Positions 8,549 through 15,240 of a stretch of 38,148 nt of DNA are shown piece after piece. The DNA is from Candidatus Bathyarchaeota archaeon (GTDB taxonomy: Archaea; Thermoproteota; Bathyarchaeia; Bathyarchaeales; DTEX01): contig JAGTQS010000003.1 of assembly GCA_018397055.1 (NCBI GenBank), positions 1-38,148 on the forward strand, given 5' to 3'. The first letter of the stretch is position 1, and the number at the start of each line of letters is the position of its first letter. A program made the position numbers and the translations under genes. The notes beneath the pieces were generated by a model. The model did not search any database and was not told the DNA's origin. It worked only from the letters and a program-made list of their open reading frames with translations.

Positions 8549-9925
8549 CTACTTAACTTGATAAAACCCTTTAAGGTTGTCAAGAACGATTTTTGCGGGT
8601 TCCTCTTGGTTTCTAATTTTTAGGATAAGGTTTAACCCATCAATTTTGGCTTTTTCAGGAATATGTAATAAAAAACGTTGATTAGCCCAGTAACGTAATG
8701 TGAATGATTTCCTCGCAACCACTCGGCGTTCAACTTCAATTGACACATCAATTTCTACATCGCCCTTACCACGGTTAATGGCATCAAAGGTGAGGTGAGA
8801 TATAGGGCAATCTCCATTGAACTTTATGAATCTACTTAAGGTTGCTTCCTTCTTTCCCACTGGAACTTCCCAAATAGCGGAGCCCTTGCCTTCGGTTATG
8901 CCTTCTGGATAAGCTATTTTTTCAAGGTTTCCATTTATCCATGTGCCTTCACTTTTATATGGTTTGAGAGTCCCTTCATTAACGTGCCATGTTTTTAAGT
9001 CTTCATCTTCGAAGTTGCCAAGTAATATGCCAGGTGTATAGGGCCACAAAGCATCTTCAGAAATGGACATCCACTGGCTTTCTGCATTGAAGTCTTCTTT
9101 GTACATCTTTAGTAATAACTTCATGTCTACTGGAATAATGTAGACTACGCTTTTGAAACGTGGATTTGCCTTTCCAGTGTCTGTTTCAGAAGCTACATCG
9201 CTGTGTAAGCACGGTCCCCATCGAATACCAACATGATAAGCGTTTTCGCTAGCTACCAAAATCATATATGCGCTGCTGCCCGCAACCCAACCAACCAGCG
9301 GTAAAGCCAAGTCATTTGAGGAAGACCAGCTTAGACTGGAGTCAGCATGTTTCGCGGTTCTGAAGAGCTGAATCCAAGGTCCTCCATCGTCACTTCCTTG
9401 ATGATACTCAGATCGGCCACGTTCCGCATCTGAGATCCAGCTGAAACCTTTACCTTCGAAGAAAGCGAAGGACTTTCGGGCCATCTCAAATGGAGGGTGA
9501 TTCTCGTCTGAGAACTGGTGGCTCATGAAGCAAGTGTTGAACGCAGTCAACTTTACATTCGAAGGCAATTCTAGCATTTCACCCTCAATCTTCACCCTTA
9601 AGTGTTCAGATGTAAACTTCAACTTGAGCAAGTAAGGTAGCCCATCCAGATTGTTAAGATTTCCACGTAACACGAGTTCCAGAGTGTTCTCAGACCTCTT
9701 TTTCTTAATGCTTGTGACATTACAGTATGGGAGTAGATGTCGGCCATCCCAGAGTTTTATGCCAACTTGCTCCATGTTAAAATCGAGCTCAGGTCTCGAA
9801 GGAAACAGATTGGAAGTCATCTTTACAGAACACGTCTCATTCTTCCTGTGCTCAACGAGCAACAACTCAATAGGGCAGCCTTTATTTCGAAACAAATTAT
9901 TACCTCGCACAACCACCTTTTCCAT
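8549..9925 (-). CDS. Hypothetical protein (458 aa, no signal peptide or TM recognised)
   Basis: Long uninterrupted ORF with normal amino-acid composition. I recognise no family motif. Convergent with the GT2 gene. Confidence 0.55.
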   Translation of the reverse strand: MEKVVVRGNNLFRNKGCPIELLLVEHRKNETCSVKMTSNLFPSRPELDFNMEQVGIKLWDGRHLLPYCNVTSIKKKRSENTLELVLRGNLNNLDGLPYLLKLKFTSEHLRVKIEGEMLELPSNVKLTAFNTCFMSHQFSDENHPPFEMARKSFAFFEGKGFSWISDAERGRSEYHQGSDDGGPWIQLFRTAKHADSSLSWSSSNDLALPLVGWVAGSSAYMILVASENAYHVGIRWGPCLHSDVASETDTGKANPRFKSVVYIIPVDMKLLLKMYKEDFNAESQWMSISEDALWPYTPGILLGNFEDEDLKTWHVNEGTLKPYKSEGTWINGNLEKIAYPEGITEGKGSAIWEVPVGKKEATLSRFIKFNGDCPISHLTFDAINRGKGDVEIDVSIEVERRVVARKSFTLRYWANQRFLLHIPEKAKIDGLNLILKIRNQEEPAKIVLDNLKGFYQVK

Positions 9926-10051: not shown

Positions 10052-10162
10052 TGGTGCCGGGGGCTGGATTCGAACCCGCGACCTCTGGACATTGGGCGCT
10101 TGCCCTTTTTTTGTTCTCCAGATTATGAGTCTGGCGCCCAAACCAAGCTAGGCTACCCCGGC
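10052..10162 (-). tRNA. tRNA-Met (anticodon CAT at 10125..10127; elongator Met or Ile2 cannot be distinguished) with a 33-nt intron at a non-canonical position (variable-loop side, about 10083..10115) and encoded CCA
   Basis: Reverse complement reads GCCGGGG-TA-GCCT-AGCTTGGTTT-GGGC-G-CCAGA-CTCATAA-TCTGG-AG[33 nt]GTC-GCGGG-TTCGAAT-CCAGC-CCCCGGC-A-CCA. G1:C72 argues against an initiator. There is one G.A mismatch in the T stem. The intron has a central CUGG/CCAG helix with 3-nt bulges AGA/AGG. Confidence 0.8.
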
Positions 10163-11350: not shown

Positions 11351-12121
11351 TTACTCCTCAACTTCCATTTTGTTAAGTTTTTTCAAAACCTTCTCCACGT
11401 CAGCCAAGATTTGCTCAACCTTTTTCTCCGCTTCGCCCGCCTCCTGTTCATGCGAAGGCTTTGACTTAATTGCCTTCTTTTTTGTCTCAGCTGGTTTTTC
11501 ATTGGGCTGTTTAGGTTCTTCTGCCTTCTCTTCCTTAGACTCTTCTTGTGGTTCTACTTGAACTTTCAACTGATCAAGATAGCCAAGTTCCTTTTTTATT
11601 TCAGAAGCAATAGCTTCCTTAGTTGACTGGTCTATTAAGCCGATTTTTTGCCTCAAATCTTCAATTTTTTTGTTTATTTCTTCAAATTGTTCGGTAAACA
11701 TTTTTATGAGTTCATCACGAACCTTTTCAAGTTGATTTAGAGCAACAATCGTTTCACCTTTTTCAATTCCCTGTTTGATTCTGGAAAGGTCCATGCTGTA
11801 TTTCTGTAAAAGCTGATCTCTTTCAGCCTCTGTAATTTTCCCCACGGCACTAGCCTCATAGAGCCTTCTAACTGCATCACTGAGAATCTCTCTTTCAACA
11901 TCAAGCAGCCTAAGTTTCTCCTTAGCTTCTGAAATAACTTCCGTGGAAATTGACTTCTGAACAGTCTGAGGTAAAGAGATCTCTGTTTGCACTTTACCTA
12001 GTTTTGAAGGCTCCTCCTGTGGTGGCTTTTCCTTTTCCCGCTGCATAACAAGAACTATGATTAATCCTACAGCCACGGTTGCTGAAACAAGTAACAGCCA
12101 AAACCAAAGATCTGCGTTCAC
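11351..12121 (-). CDS. N-terminally membrane-anchored coiled-coil protein with K/E-rich tail (function unknown)
   Basis: 256 aa. One N-terminal TM helix 'LWFWLLLVSATVAVGLIIVLVM', then heptad-like charged sequence and a KE-rich C-terminus. Its stop abuts the rpiA start. Confidence 0.55.
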   Translation of the reverse strand: MNADLWFWLLLVSATVAVGLIIVLVMQREKEKPPQEEPSKLGKVQTEISLPQTVQKSISTEVISEAKEKLRLLDVEREILSDAVRRLYEASAVGKITEAERDQLLQKYSMDLSRIKQGIEKGETIVALNQLEKVRDELIKMFTEQFEEINKKIEDLRQKIGLIDQSTKEAIASEIKKELGYLDQLKVQVEPQEESKEEKAEEPKQPNEKPAETKKKAIKSKPSHEQEAGEAEKKVEQILADVEKVLKKLNKMEVEE

Positions 12122-12231: not shown

Positions 12232-12940
12232 TTAATATAAAAATCTGTGTCCATGTTTTCCGACAAGAGGAACAAAAGCAACTCCTCCCAGATCTTCCTC
12301 TTTAAAATCACCGTTAAGTTTAGTTAAACGGAGAAGAGTTTGATAAAATCCAATTGCTCCGACTGGAATAACAATGATGCCGCCTTTTTTTAATTGGTCC
12401 TTAAAAGGAGGGGGAACATAGGGTGCAGCAGCAGTCACATATATTCTATCAAACGGAGCTTTTTCAGGATAGCCTTCAGAACCATCCTTACAGATTATTG
12501 TGATCCTTTCGTTATAACCAGCATTATTAATATTTTTCTGGGCTAATTCTGCAAGTTTCGGAACAATTTCAATTGAGAAAACATGGCCCCATCTCTCTTT
12601 AGGCACGTTACTCGGCGCCACAATTTCAGCAACAGTTGCAGCGTGCCACCCACACCCAGACCCAACCTCAAGAACAATGTGCCCCACTTCCAGTTTCAGG
12701 GCTTCATTCATTATCGAAACCATGTCTCGCCTGACTGACCGTGTAAAATCAGCCAAGTGGCGCAGAAACCGTTTGCCCTGAACCTATAGGCAATGGTGTA
12801 TCAACCACTGCTGCCGCCTTGTCGTTTTCTGAAAGGAAAAGATGCCTTGGCACCATCCGCATTGCTCTTATCACAGCGGTCGTTTTTAGTATGCCGCATC
12901 CTATGAGTTCACGTATCAAGTTTTCCCACGAATTATTCAA
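12232..12940 (-). CDS. pcm: Protein-L-isoaspartate O-methyltransferase, reading frame interrupted by a 31-nt intervening sequence (12726..12756)
   Basis: The two ORF-track pieces are 12749..12940 ('...PLPIGSGQTVSAPLG*') and 12232..12756 ('...DMVSIMNEALKLEVGHIVLEVGSGCGWHAATVAEIV...GGVAFVPLVG'). Together they give a PIMT of about 225 aa. Deleting 12726..12756 yields '...GQTVSAPHMVSIMNE...'. Confidence 0.85.
12726..12756 (-). other. 31-nt intervening sequence in pcm with a bulge-helix-bulge fold (candidate endonuclease-spliced mRNA intron)
   Basis: Minus strand reads CGCC-AC|U-UGGCUGA-UUUUACACGG-UCAGUCA-GGCG-AG|A. This gives a 4-bp central helix CGCC/GGCG, 3-nt bulges ACU and AGA on opposite strands, and a 7-bp inner helix with one G.U. 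The junctions deduced from the protein fall after nt 2 of each bulge. Confidence 0.55.
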
Positions 12941-13104: not shown

Positions 13105-14928
13105 CTATTTTACTGTTACAGATTTCGCTAGGTTACGCGGTTTGTCGGGATTCAACCCTTTTTCCATTGCCATGTAATAGGCTAGAAGCTGCAAAGGCGT
13201 GATGAATGCGATTGGCGTAAGTATTTCAGGAAGGCTGCCAGCAACTTCGAAGTATTTGTCTGATAGGCTCTTAATTTCCTCGTCTCCTTCTTCAATAACT
13301 GAAATTATTGTAGCACCTCTTGCCTTCATCTCCATTATGTTTCCAATAATGTTTTTTCGAGTTTCATCTTTGGGGCATATGAACACTACTGGAAACCCTG
13401 GTTCAATGAGGCTTATAGGACCATGCTTACTTTCGCCTGCTGGATACGCGATCGACGGAACATAAGCGATCTCCATCAGCTTAAGCCTAGCTTCGTGCGC
13501 TGTGGCGGAGCTTATTCCCCTACCTAAGAAAAAGAATACTTGTTTGTCTTTGAATTCCTTGGCAACTTTTCTTGCAACTGAATCGTTCTTTTTAATGGTA
13601 TTTTCCACTATGTCAGGCATTTGACGAATCTTTGCTTCTAACTCCTCAATTTGGCGATGTCCAATTTTCCCCCGAATTTTTGCCACCCTTAGGGCGAGCT
13701 GAGCAAGAACAGATAGCTGAGACGTAAAAGTCTTTGTTGCTGCAACGCCAATCTCTGGACCTGACTGCTGAACTATGTATACTCTTGAAACTCTTGTTAA
13801 TGAGGAACCAACTACATTAGTCAAACCAAGTATTGTTGCAGCGCGGTTACGAGCATAATCAACGGCAGCCAAAGTATCAGTGGTTTCTCCAGACTGGCTA
13901 ACAGCGAGGATTGTGCTATTAATGTTCACAGCCATACCCTCTTGTTCAATGAACTCGGACGAAATCACTGGATGCGTAGCTAAAAATGCGAGATCCGAAA
14001 ACATGTACGAGGCGGCAAGACAAGCATGGTACGATGTGCCCGCAGCGACAAGAAAAACCTCGCCAGCTCGATCCATGAAAGTTGCCATTAAATCAAGGTA
14101 TAAATCCTGAAGCCTCAAAGTGTCTCTTAGACACCTTGGCTGCTCGTAAATCTCCTTGATCATAAAGTGAGGGTAACCTTGTTTTTCAGCCATCTCTGCA
14201 GTCCATTTAATTAGCTCGGGTTCTCTTTTAACGGGCTTAAAATCTTCTATCGTCCAGATTTCGTATTTGTCAGATTTGATTACAGCAATTTCGCCATTCT
14301 CAAGAATTACTGCTCTATTCGTCAAAGGAAGGAAAGCAGGAATGTCTGAAGCACAGTATGTTCCTTTTTCACTAACGCCGATGATGAGTGGACTTTCGTT
14401 TCTAGCACATACTATTGTGTTAGGTTCAAAGACTGATAGCACCGCAATAGCATATGAACCTCTAATGGTTTTTAATGCCTCACGCACAGCTTCTATGAGA
14501 TTTATTCCTTTTTTCATGTTTTCCTCGATAAGATGGGGAATAACTTCTGTGTCAGTTTTAGATCTAAATTCATGTCCTAAAGCCTCAAGTTCCTTCCTAA
14601 TTTCTAAAAAGTTTTCAACTATACCGTTATGAACGACCGCGATTTTATTTTGGCAATCAGTATGTGGATGGGCATTTACTTTATATGGGGCTCCATGAGT
14701 CGCCCACCTAGTGTGCCCAATTCCTATGCTTCCTTCCATATCGTCAAGGTTTAGTTCTTTATGAACCTCGTCAATTTTTCCTTGATCCTTCTTAATGTAC
14801 ATGGCGCCATCAAATAGAGTTACTTCTCCCACTGAATCATAACCTCTATATTCAAGTCTCTTAAGAGCGGCATGAATTAAAGGAGCAGCTTTACCTTCTT
14901 TCAATGCACACCCAAAAATTCCACACAT
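13105..14928 (-). CDS. glmS: Glutamine--fructose-6-phosphate aminotransferase (isomerising)
   Basis: 607 aa. Ntn-amidotransferase start 'MCGIFG', two SIS domains ('GTSYHA', 'SQSGETTDT') and C-terminal 'LAKSVTVK'. Confidence 0.95.
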   Translation of the reverse strand: MCGIFGCALKEGKAAPLIHAALKRLEYRGYDSVGEVTLFDGAMYIKKDQGKIDEVHKELNLDDMEGSIGIGHTRWATHGAPYKVNAHPHTDCQNKIAVVHNGIVENFLEIRKELEALGHEFRSKTDTEVIPHLIEENMKKGINLIEAVREALKTIRGSYAIAVLSVFEPNTIVCARNESPLIIGVSEKGTYCASDIPAFLPLTNRAVILENGEIAVIKSDKYEIWTIEDFKPVKREPELIKWTAEMAEKQGYPHFMIKEIYEQPRCLRDTLRLQDLYLDLMATFMDRAGEVFLVAAGTSYHACLAASYMFSDLAFLATHPVISSEFIEQEGMAVNINSTILAVSQSGETTDTLAAVDYARNRAATILGLTNVVGSSLTRVSRVYIVQQSGPEIGVAATKTFTSQLSVLAQLALRVAKIRGKIGHRQIEELEAKIRQMPDIVENTIKKNDSVARKVAKEFKDKQVFFFLGRGISSATAHEARLKLMEIAYVPSIAYPAGESKHGPISLIEPGFPVVFICPKDETRKNIIGNIMEMKARGATIISVIEEGDEEIKSLSDKYFEVAGSLPEILTPIAFITPLQLLAYYMAMEKGLNPDKPRNLAKSVTVK

Positions 14929-15145: not shown

Positions 15146-15240
15146 GCGGCCGTAGTCTAGCTTGGTTAGGACGCCGGCCTCCCAATCAATTTAGGAGAAG
15201 AAAGCCGACAGCCCGGGTTCAAATCTCGGCGGCCGCACCA
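15146..15240 (+). tRNA. tRNA-Gly (anticodon CCC at 15181..15183) with an 18-nt intron at the canonical 37/38 position (about 15185..15202) and encoded CCA
   Basis: GCGGCCG-TA-GTCT-AGCTTGGTTA-GGAC-G-CCGGC-CTCCCA[ATCAATTTAGGAGAAGAA]A-GCCGA-CAGC-CCGGG-TTCAAAT-CTCGG-CGGCCGC-A-CCA. Intron GGAG pairs with anticodon-loop CUCC. There is a C27.A43 mismatch and a 4-nt variable loop. Confidence 0.8.

Follow-up and report, generated by a model that had tools for sequence, protein, structure and literature searches.

According to a 2020 study, cbf5 is the only archaeal coding sequence interrupted by a bulge-helix-bulge (BHB) intron, besides one Haloferax intron in a 5′ untranslated region (5′ UTR) (PMC7714728), and a structural paper of 2025 also cites only cbf5 as such a case (PMC12397907). 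The cbf5 intron occurs in the Crenarchaeota, in Desulfurococcales and Sulfolobales, in the gene for the Cbf5/dyskerin homologue, with a patchy distribution implying gain and loss. It falls between letters 1 and 2 of an active-site codon (that of the catalytic Asp) and forms an unconventional BHB, whose cleavage, between residues 2 and 3 of the bulges, requires a hetero-oligomeric EndA, the tRNA-splicing endonuclease (Yokobori 2009, PMC2738675). Here we describe a comparable interruption in pcm, the gene for protein-L-isoaspartate O-methyltransferase (PIMT), in a 38,148-nucleotide (nt) stretch of a Candidatus Bathyarchaeota archaeon (assembly GCA_018397055.1, contig JAGTQS010000003.1, positions 1 to 38,148; the whole stretch is called the window below). 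The 31 nt at 12726..12756 are very probably an archaeal BHB intron within the pcm coding sequence, so that the spliced mRNA would yield PIMT. This reading is drawn from the exact restoration of frame and motif upon excision, a fixed position occupied by variable inserts, covariation, constraint on exon bases, intact exons, a dead unspliced message, the implied machinery and the cbf5 precedent. All sequence-level predictions tested for it were borne out.

In the window, pcm lies on the minus strand in two pieces, the open reading frames (ORFs) 12749..12940 (63 aa, ending ...SAPLG*) and 12232..12756. On the coding strand the junction reads GCG CCA C/TTGGCTGATTTTACACGGTCAGTCAGGCGAG/AC ATG GTT, with the insert running from 12756 to 12726. 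Both the split and the junction had been described, with exact coordinates and sequence, in an earlier note on this DNA. When exactly 31 nt were excised, a 225-aa product with the SAPHM motif was obtained, containing GQTVSAPHMVSIMNE. Moving the excision by −1 gave Asp and by +1 gave Leu, and His was obtained only with the exact excision; the note's statements that frame, motif and a length of about 225 aa are restored, and that shifted excisions give Asp or Leu, were reproduced in full. PF01135 (PCMT) covered residues 6-219 of the spliced product (E = 6e-58; 196.5 bits versus a cut-off of 20.3), and the product scored above the NCBIfam equivalog cut-offs for PIMT (TIGR00080, 194 versus 159; NF001453, 211 versus 188). 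PIMTs in the PDB were matched at E = 4e-51, and the alignment with the solved PIMTs 1jg1 (P. furiosus), 2yxe and 4o29 was gapless across the junction GQTVSAPHMV. By these matches the predicted spliced product is a complete PIMT, with SAPHM and the S-adenosylmethionine-binding region intact. The features of the locus, including the predicted pairs and cuts in the minimum-free-energy (MFE) fold, are as follows:

12757..12940, minus strand: pcm exon 1, with a TTG start at 12940; residues 1-61 plus C12757, the first base of the His codon (from the ORF list, the spliced translation and Pfam).
12726..12756, minus strand: candidate BHB intron UUGGCUGAUUUUACACGGUCAGUCAGGCGAG, 31 nt, phase 1 in the His codon of SAPHM.
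12232..12725, minus strand: pcm exon 2, opening with AC of the His codon and then ATG GTT; residues 62-225, stop codon included.
12759..12762, minus strand: central helix H, 5′ strand (exon), CGCC, made of Ala-codon positions 2-3 and Pro-codon positions 1-2; pairs with 12728..12731 in the MFE fold.
12756..12758, minus strand: 5′ bulge ACU, with a predicted cut C12757/U12756; unpaired in the MFE fold and in the unguided RNAalifold consensus.
12732..12755, minus strand: inner hairpin h′, UGGCUGAUU / loop UUACAC / GGUCAGUCA, in the MFE fold.
12728..12731, minus strand: central helix H, 3′ strand (intron), GGCG, stacking directly on the inner hairpin.
12725..12727, minus strand: 3′ cut site AGA, with a predicted cut G12726/A12725; the family consensus is A-N-A.
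12724, minus strand: C of the His codon (CAC), partner of G12763, the Ala codon's first base, in the sole outer-helix pair that is conserved.

The recurrence of the insert was examined in two sets. The protein-based scan took one genome per species and imposed no DNA pattern, giving an unbiased set. It returned 63 Bathyarchaeia-like pcm loci, in 14 of which tblastn showed a frame change at residue 61/62. All 14 of these species-level genomes carried a 29-32-nt insert between GC(G/A)CCAC and ACATGG, at the same nucleotide position as in the window. The metagenome DNA scan fixed the coding flanks and GGNGAN, left the hairpin free, and gave at least 120 stretches. With both sets combined there were at least 134 loci, all counts being among the matches listed. 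At least 134 contigs carried a 22-50-nt insert at the identical codon position, and at least 124 of the insert sequences were distinct. The spliced proteins of these loci were 48-100% identical (median 65%), with about 100 lineages below 95% identity; the contigs came from sediment, soil and peat metagenomes, from many projects and from several assemblers (MEGAHIT k141, SPAdes NODE and long-read contig names). The host is a member of the Bathyarchaeia.

After excision every complete locus read through, except L096, with one in-frame TAG, and L119, a 1-kb contig with frameshifts. The exons flanking the insert thus appear intact and under purifying selection. The earlier note had proposed to look at the pcm loci of relatives, and there the insert position, the pairing with its compensatory changes and the otherwise intact ORF were all found conserved. 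On a neighbour-joining tree of PIMT, a single short protein that resolves the groups weakly, carriers were scattered among non-carriers; this scatter suggests an old intron with repeated precise losses, that is, one that is old within the Bathyarchaeia and repeatedly lost, gain being less likely.

A second intron at the breaks in L096 and L119 was considered and rejected, as the former is a single in-frame TAG and the latter a set of frameshifts, neither of them an insert. The TAG of L096 (Ga0187773_10035391) lies in exon 2 (DGS*GHPEKAPYD) and may have arisen by nonsense mutation or sequencing error, or could conceivably be recoded as pyrrolysine. Locus L058 (CAWDEY010000014.1), binned as 'uncultured Nitrospira sp.', encodes a Bathyarchaeia-like PIMT with 57% identity to the window protein; it has a 1-nt frameshift near residue 53, away from the intron site, which probably reflects mis-binning plus a long-read indel error.

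Structure across the family was assessed by counting pairs inward from the junctions. The insert ends are anchored, so the pairs are independent of alignment, and pair statistics were taken from a gapless, junction-anchored, loop-trimmed alignment. All 125 distinct sequences paired at the central helix CGCC/GGCG; in the metagenome set the DNA pattern had preset three of the helix pairs and most bulge bases, whose invariance there is not evidence. The same pattern-fixed pairs were also invariant in the 15 loci obtained by protein search alone, and all 15 had the same layout, which agrees with the BHB geometry that the note had assigned to the site. The one free central pair, formed by the third base of the Ala codon and an insert base (both N in the pattern), was G-C in 121 sequences and A-U in four, with no mismatch. 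Inner-helix pairs 1-6 were paired in 98, 98, 98, 94, 88 and 85% of sequences, with 3-5 pair types each, and all six changed on both sides. Overall, 85.5% of cells were paired, falling to 23-44% when the 3′ partners were slid. The covariation score was 0.360, compared with 0.169 in shuffles, and none of 500 shuffles reached the observed score; the sequences are phylogenetically related, so these shuffle-based figures overstate the significance. Compensatory changes are therefore present, albeit among related sequences and with part of the helix preset by the search pattern. Furthermore, an unguided RNAalifold of 27 full-length sequences of the 31-nt class returned the same core, in which three unpaired bases follow the 4-bp helix and the inner helix adjoins the central one without a break on the 3′ side. 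The bulge consensus was AC[A/U/G] at the 5′ site and A-N-A at the 3′ site, and the inner helix was strong, with 93% of cells paired.

The exon bases at the junction were compared between carriers and non-carriers, both within the protein-based scan (Fisher test). The junction GCG-CCA-CAC was present in 14 of 15 carriers and in 1 of 47 non-carriers (p = 7.6e-12). Pro was encoded by CCA, whose A is bulge base 1, in all 15 carriers versus 11 of 47 non-carriers (p = 8.3e-08), and His by CAC, whose last C takes part in the outer G-C pair, in all 15 versus 28 of 47 (p = 0.0027). Ala was GCG in 14 of 15 carriers versus 26 of 47 non-carriers, and the single carrier with GCA had a compensating GGUG in its insert. 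The nearest insert-free relatives of a carrier lineage, at 86-88% protein identity, read GCA CCT CAC or GCT CCA CAC. This pattern supports the view that synonymous exon bases at the junction are constrained in carriers only, as the RNA motif predicts.

The unspliced message is dead. Insert lengths fell into all three modulo-3 classes (57, 49 and 19 sequences), and none of the 125 allowed in-frame read-through, since translation would end either at a stop within the insert or, out of frame, at one soon after it. With no in-frame read-through and all three length classes present, a fixed frameshift or hop cannot rescue the gene. All 19 inserts whose length is a multiple of three (for example L115, L074, L131 and L165) hold an in-frame stop, and inserts of this type are thus not tolerable as in-frame peptide insertions; these stops may stem from common descent of the CUAGGCG motif and not from selection.

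The window also holds tRNA introns. ARAGORN called no tRNAs in the window, while Rfam matched only two, both of them intron-containing:

10055..10162, minus strand: tRNA-Met(CAU) gene, found by Rfam and missed by ARAGORN.
10083..10115, minus strand: 33-nt intron of tRNA-Met(CAU), at the non-canonical position 45/46 (variable loop), with CUGG[AGA]...CCAG[AGG].
15146..15237, plus strand: tRNA-Gly(CCC), with an 18-nt anticodon-loop intron at 15185..15202 (boundaries by the intron mode of ARAGORN).

With cuts placed behind base 2 of both bulges, the tRNA-Met(CAU) gene gave a 78-nt tRNA-Met, its CCA encoded, that ARAGORN recognised; the unspliced form was rejected. This calibrates the cut rule. Applied to pcm, a cut between bulge residues 2 and 3 is the only excision that restores both His and SAPHM, and the cut position named in the earlier note is therefore the one that also splices the tRNA of the same window. 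Given the tRNA-Met intron at 45/46, the host must possess an endonuclease and a ligase acting on exactly this geometry away from the anticodon loop, and splicing machinery is in this way implied. No EndA or RtcB gene was found within the window. EndA types (alpha-beta)2 and epsilon2 are described as able to cut relaxed or non-canonical motifs (PMC5829648); together with the 45/46 intron of the window, this indirectly favours an EndA of such a type in the host. On the 3′ side of the tRNA-Gly(CCC) intron there is no obvious strict 3-nt bulge.

The key steps of the proposed mechanism would be as follows: Folding: CGCC of the exon (Ala and Pro codons) would pair in the pre-mRNA with GGCG near the 3′ end of the insert, giving a 4-bp central helix. 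A stable inner hairpin would stack on this helix with the three bases ACU bulging from the 5′ strand, and A-N-A, following the helix on the 3′ strand, would sit in a weakly closed bulge or internal loop (the relaxed form, HBh′). Cleavage: EndA would cut after the second bulge base on each side, at C12757/U12756 and G12726/A12725. Ligation: an RtcB-type ligase would then join the exons, rebuilding the His codon from C and AC and with it the active-site SAPHM. The spliced mRNA would carry the junction GCGCCAC/ACAUGGUU and encode the junction peptide SAPHMVSIMNEALK, and only this spliced form would encode the full-length enzyme. From the sequences we infer the role of EndA as the nuclease, the ensuing ligation and the translation of the spliced message.

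The window copy by itself gives suggestive, not compelling, evidence for a BHB. In the MFE fold of 75 nt around the site, CGCC/GGCG formed a 4-bp helix, ACU was unpaired, and a 9-bp inner hairpin with a 6-nt loop sat on GGCG. The earlier note's central helix, ACU bulge and stacked hairpin were thus recovered; its hairpin dimensions, 7 bp with a 10-nt loop, were not. The fold had z = −2.46, and 5 of 200 shuffles folded equally well. In a generic BHB scan of the whole window, only the pcm site had a central helix wholly of G/C pairs together with a long inner helix and a genuine gene fusion, so the BHB at the pcm junction exceeds chance expectation. This bears out the note's argument that a BHB in register with the motif-restoring junctions is not random. 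The wider scan for other split coding genes that the note had also suggested was unproductive: none was convincing in the window or in 1.13 Mb of Bathyarchaeia DNA, the matches being chance-like and non-recurrent.

Several observations weigh against a BHB intron, in addition to the relatedness of the sequences given above. In the MFE fold of the window copy, AGA, the proposed 3′ bulge, is paired with UCU of a Ser codon (12764..12766), and forcing the BHB costs 4.1 kcal/mol. The 3′ bulge claimed in the earlier note is accordingly absent from this fold, though A-N-A is the consensus at that site across the family. Across 123 homologous sites the BHB-constrained fold lay at a median of 0.4 kcal/mol above the MFE, and the full BHB was the MFE structure in only 53 of the 123. 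The outer helix is weak, with 64.5% of cells paired: its pair 1 was G-C in 125 of 125, a pair that was preset by the search pattern in the metagenome set, pairs 2 and 3 were paired in 35% and 13%, and pairs 4-5 were mostly G.U. In the RNAalifold consensus the 3′ site lay not in a canonical 3-nt bulge but in an open internal loop whose only closure is distal. A search for EndA in the DNA of the collected loci gave no match, an uninformative result. Finally, in a collection of 5.8 billion proteins neither the window lineage nor the well-sampled carrier L091 had a nearly identical, full-length product of splicing, and a search there for spliced forms, as protein or transcript, gave nothing above 88% identity. 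Of the two flanking helices of the strict hBHBh′ form only the inner one is thus strong, and the weak outer helix makes the motif a relaxed HBh′ rather than a strict hBHBh′. The pcm inserts, as modelled, fit the relaxed HBh′ class of BHB. The earlier note had already called the outer helix weak and the BHB relaxed, like that of the window tRNA(CAU), and this now applies to the whole pcm family.

The main rival to splicing is a split gene, in which one cistron encodes an N-terminal piece, ending in SAPH and a short tail, and the other a C-terminal piece of 163 aa from the Met of SAPHM onward; the two would assemble into an active PIMT, the hairpin being an intercistronic element and GGCGA/GGUGA a weak Shine-Dalgarno sequence. 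We consider this improbable, although it has real attractions: exon 2 begins exactly at ATG, gene callers give 163-aa products (P0001, P0002), and 3-4 nt upstream of that ATG the insert closes with AGGCGA, replaced by GGUGA in four lineages. For a Shine-Dalgarno sequence, however, this spacing is short. The read-through codon, which C forms with the first two bases of the insert, specifies His in 110 of 125 sequences but Leu in the window copy. Purifying selection on both halves fits two cistrons and splicing equally well. Two cistrons also fail to explain the restriction of a fixed GCG-CCA-CAC to carriers, the covariation of Ala-codon position 3 with a base of the insert (GCA going with GGUG), the unvarying helix length of exactly 4 bp with 3 unpaired bases at its flanks, and the AC, needed to complete the His codon, that stands before the ATG in every one of the 15 unbiased loci. 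Translational recoding, with the ribosome bypassing or frameshifting over the insert as in phage T4 gene 60, would make RNA processing unneeded. The stable hairpin after the take-off site would suit such a hop, as would the CAU available for take-off in many relatives and the CAC met on landing wherever the insert ends in C. The last insert base is A in 54, C in 27, G in 28 and U in 16 sequences, however, so the landing codon is not conserved as a bypass requires, and the window insert begins with U, giving a take-off codon CUU. Since the 22-50-nt lengths fall in all modulo-3 classes, no fixed frameshift works, and the model does not require the 4-bp helix between exon and intron; recoding is very unlikely.

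An inactivating insertion, either as a pseudogene or as silencing by a small mobile or duplicated element, seems to us far-fetched. It would account for the broken genomic ORF and for the further defects in 2 of the 134 loci (the L096 TAG and the L119 frameshifts). Against it, practically every complete locus has intact exons, over a range of 48-100% protein identity, and all loci share one exact nucleotide position. Nor does the insert behave as a repeat: its motif CTAGGCGA was not enriched outside pcm in 1.13 Mb of Bathyarchaeia DNA, and no 12-mer of the window insert recurred within the window. An assembly or sequencing artefact is suggested only by the general possibility of one in metagenome-assembled genomes and, with at least 134 contigs from many projects and assemblers carrying differing insert sequences, can be practically dismissed. 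The earlier note had doubted a pseudogene and an artefact alike, and the intact exons of relatives and the at least 134 independent assemblies justify both doubts. A self-splicing group I or II intron was rejected as a candidate, the insert being 22-50 nt and Rfam finding only two tRNAs in the window.

Compared with cbf5, the candidate pcm intron is alike in being a short BHB-type coding intron, in phase 1 in an active-site codon, with the same cut rule, a relaxed BHB and a patchy distribution. The genes differ in that pcm encodes a protein-repair methyltransferase, whereas cbf5 encodes a pseudouridine synthase, and the hosts in that the pcm intron occurs in Bathyarchaeia known from metagenomes, whereas the cbf5 intron occurs in cultured hyperthermophiles. 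The pcm core is also very regular, with its invariant CGCC/GGCG and strong inner hairpin. Splicing of cbf5 has been demonstrated by cDNA and by in vitro EndA cleavage, whereas that of pcm is deduced from the comparisons above. Further work on the cbf5 intron was reportedly done by Watanabe in 2002 and by Yoshinari in 2006. By its position and host gene, the pcm intron is of the same class as that of cbf5, but not the same (orthologous) intron.

Non-canonical archaeal tRNA introns (relaxed hBH or HBh′, including the tRNA-Met 45/46 intron of the window) share with pcm the 4-bp helix, 3-nt bulges, inner hairpin and weak outer helix. The tRNA-Met intron of the window is moreover cut by the rule applied to pcm and is about as long (33 nt versus 31 nt in pcm). 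The difference is that the pcm motif is hosted by an mRNA, without a tRNA body to aid recognition, and its outer helix is drawn from coding sequence and cannot evolve freely. In eukaryotes, the HAC1/XBP1 messages are spliced by the Ire1 nuclease together with tRNA ligase or RtcB. As proposed for pcm, structure guides the removal of a short intron from a coding mRNA without any spliceosome, a tRNA-splicing ligase joins the exons and the frame changes upon removal (PMC13149111); the nuclease and the recognition motif differ. The BHB intron in the 5′ UTR of HVO_1309 of Haloferax volcanii (Schwarz 2020, PMC7714728) is likewise an EndA substrate in an mRNA, outside tRNA and rRNA; unlike pcm, it rebuilds no codon and is a single-species case.

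Stress regulation is established for HAC1/XBP1, whereas for pcm it is purely speculative. The proposal that pcm splicing is a control point, with PIMT output gated by EndA/RtcB activity or by conditions under which the weak 3′ site opens or closes, is doubtful. If true, such control by splicing would be an archaeal analogue of HAC1/XBP1, tying RNA-processing capacity or stress to the repair of protein damage. In a weaker form, EndA-dependent mRNA splicing would be general and under-counted in uncultured archaea, where genes called as fragments go unnoticed.

The literature search found no report of a pcm or PIMT intron, and no paper pairing 'isoaspartate' with 'bulge-helix-bulge', most subscription journals lying outside the search; this accords with the earlier note, which knew of no such description for pcm and cited the cbf5 precedent. 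pcm would be the second archaeal protein-coding gene family to need BHB splicing, more than 20 years after cbf5. Endonuclease-dependent mRNA splicing would then be neither a one-off nor restricted to hyperthermophiles, as the pcm intron spans about 100 lineages in a different, globally abundant and uncultured class. This would extend a known mechanism to a new gene and a new archaeal class rather than constitute a new mechanism. The large set of natural variants would define the requirements of a relaxed BHB in mRNA, and offers a concrete substrate for the specificity of Bathyarchaeia EndA.

The reading also bears on annotation. Public gene calls for close relatives (again P0001 and P0002) are 163-aa fragments that start at the Met of SAPHM, and intron-bearing pcm is, on the predicted splice, systematically mis-annotated as a truncated protein. 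Gene callers and pipelines report a fragment or a pseudogene, which would make PIMT look absent or broken in about one-fifth of Bathyarchaeia genomes.

Among the neighbouring genes, the ORF directly downstream of pcm (11351..12121, minus strand) encodes 256 aa, is Lys/Glu-rich with a hydrophobic N-terminus, and has no Pfam match. A 458-aa ORF at 8549..9925 (minus strand), also without a Pfam match, adjoins the tRNA-Met gene. Directly upstream of pcm lies a GATase/SIS gene (glmS), and a PALP-family gene is nearby, both in the window and in the loci L189 and L190. The adjacency of glmS (13105..14928, minus strand) and pcm (12232..12940, minus strand) is common to the window and to these two loci, which belong to distant insert-free Bathyarchaeia.

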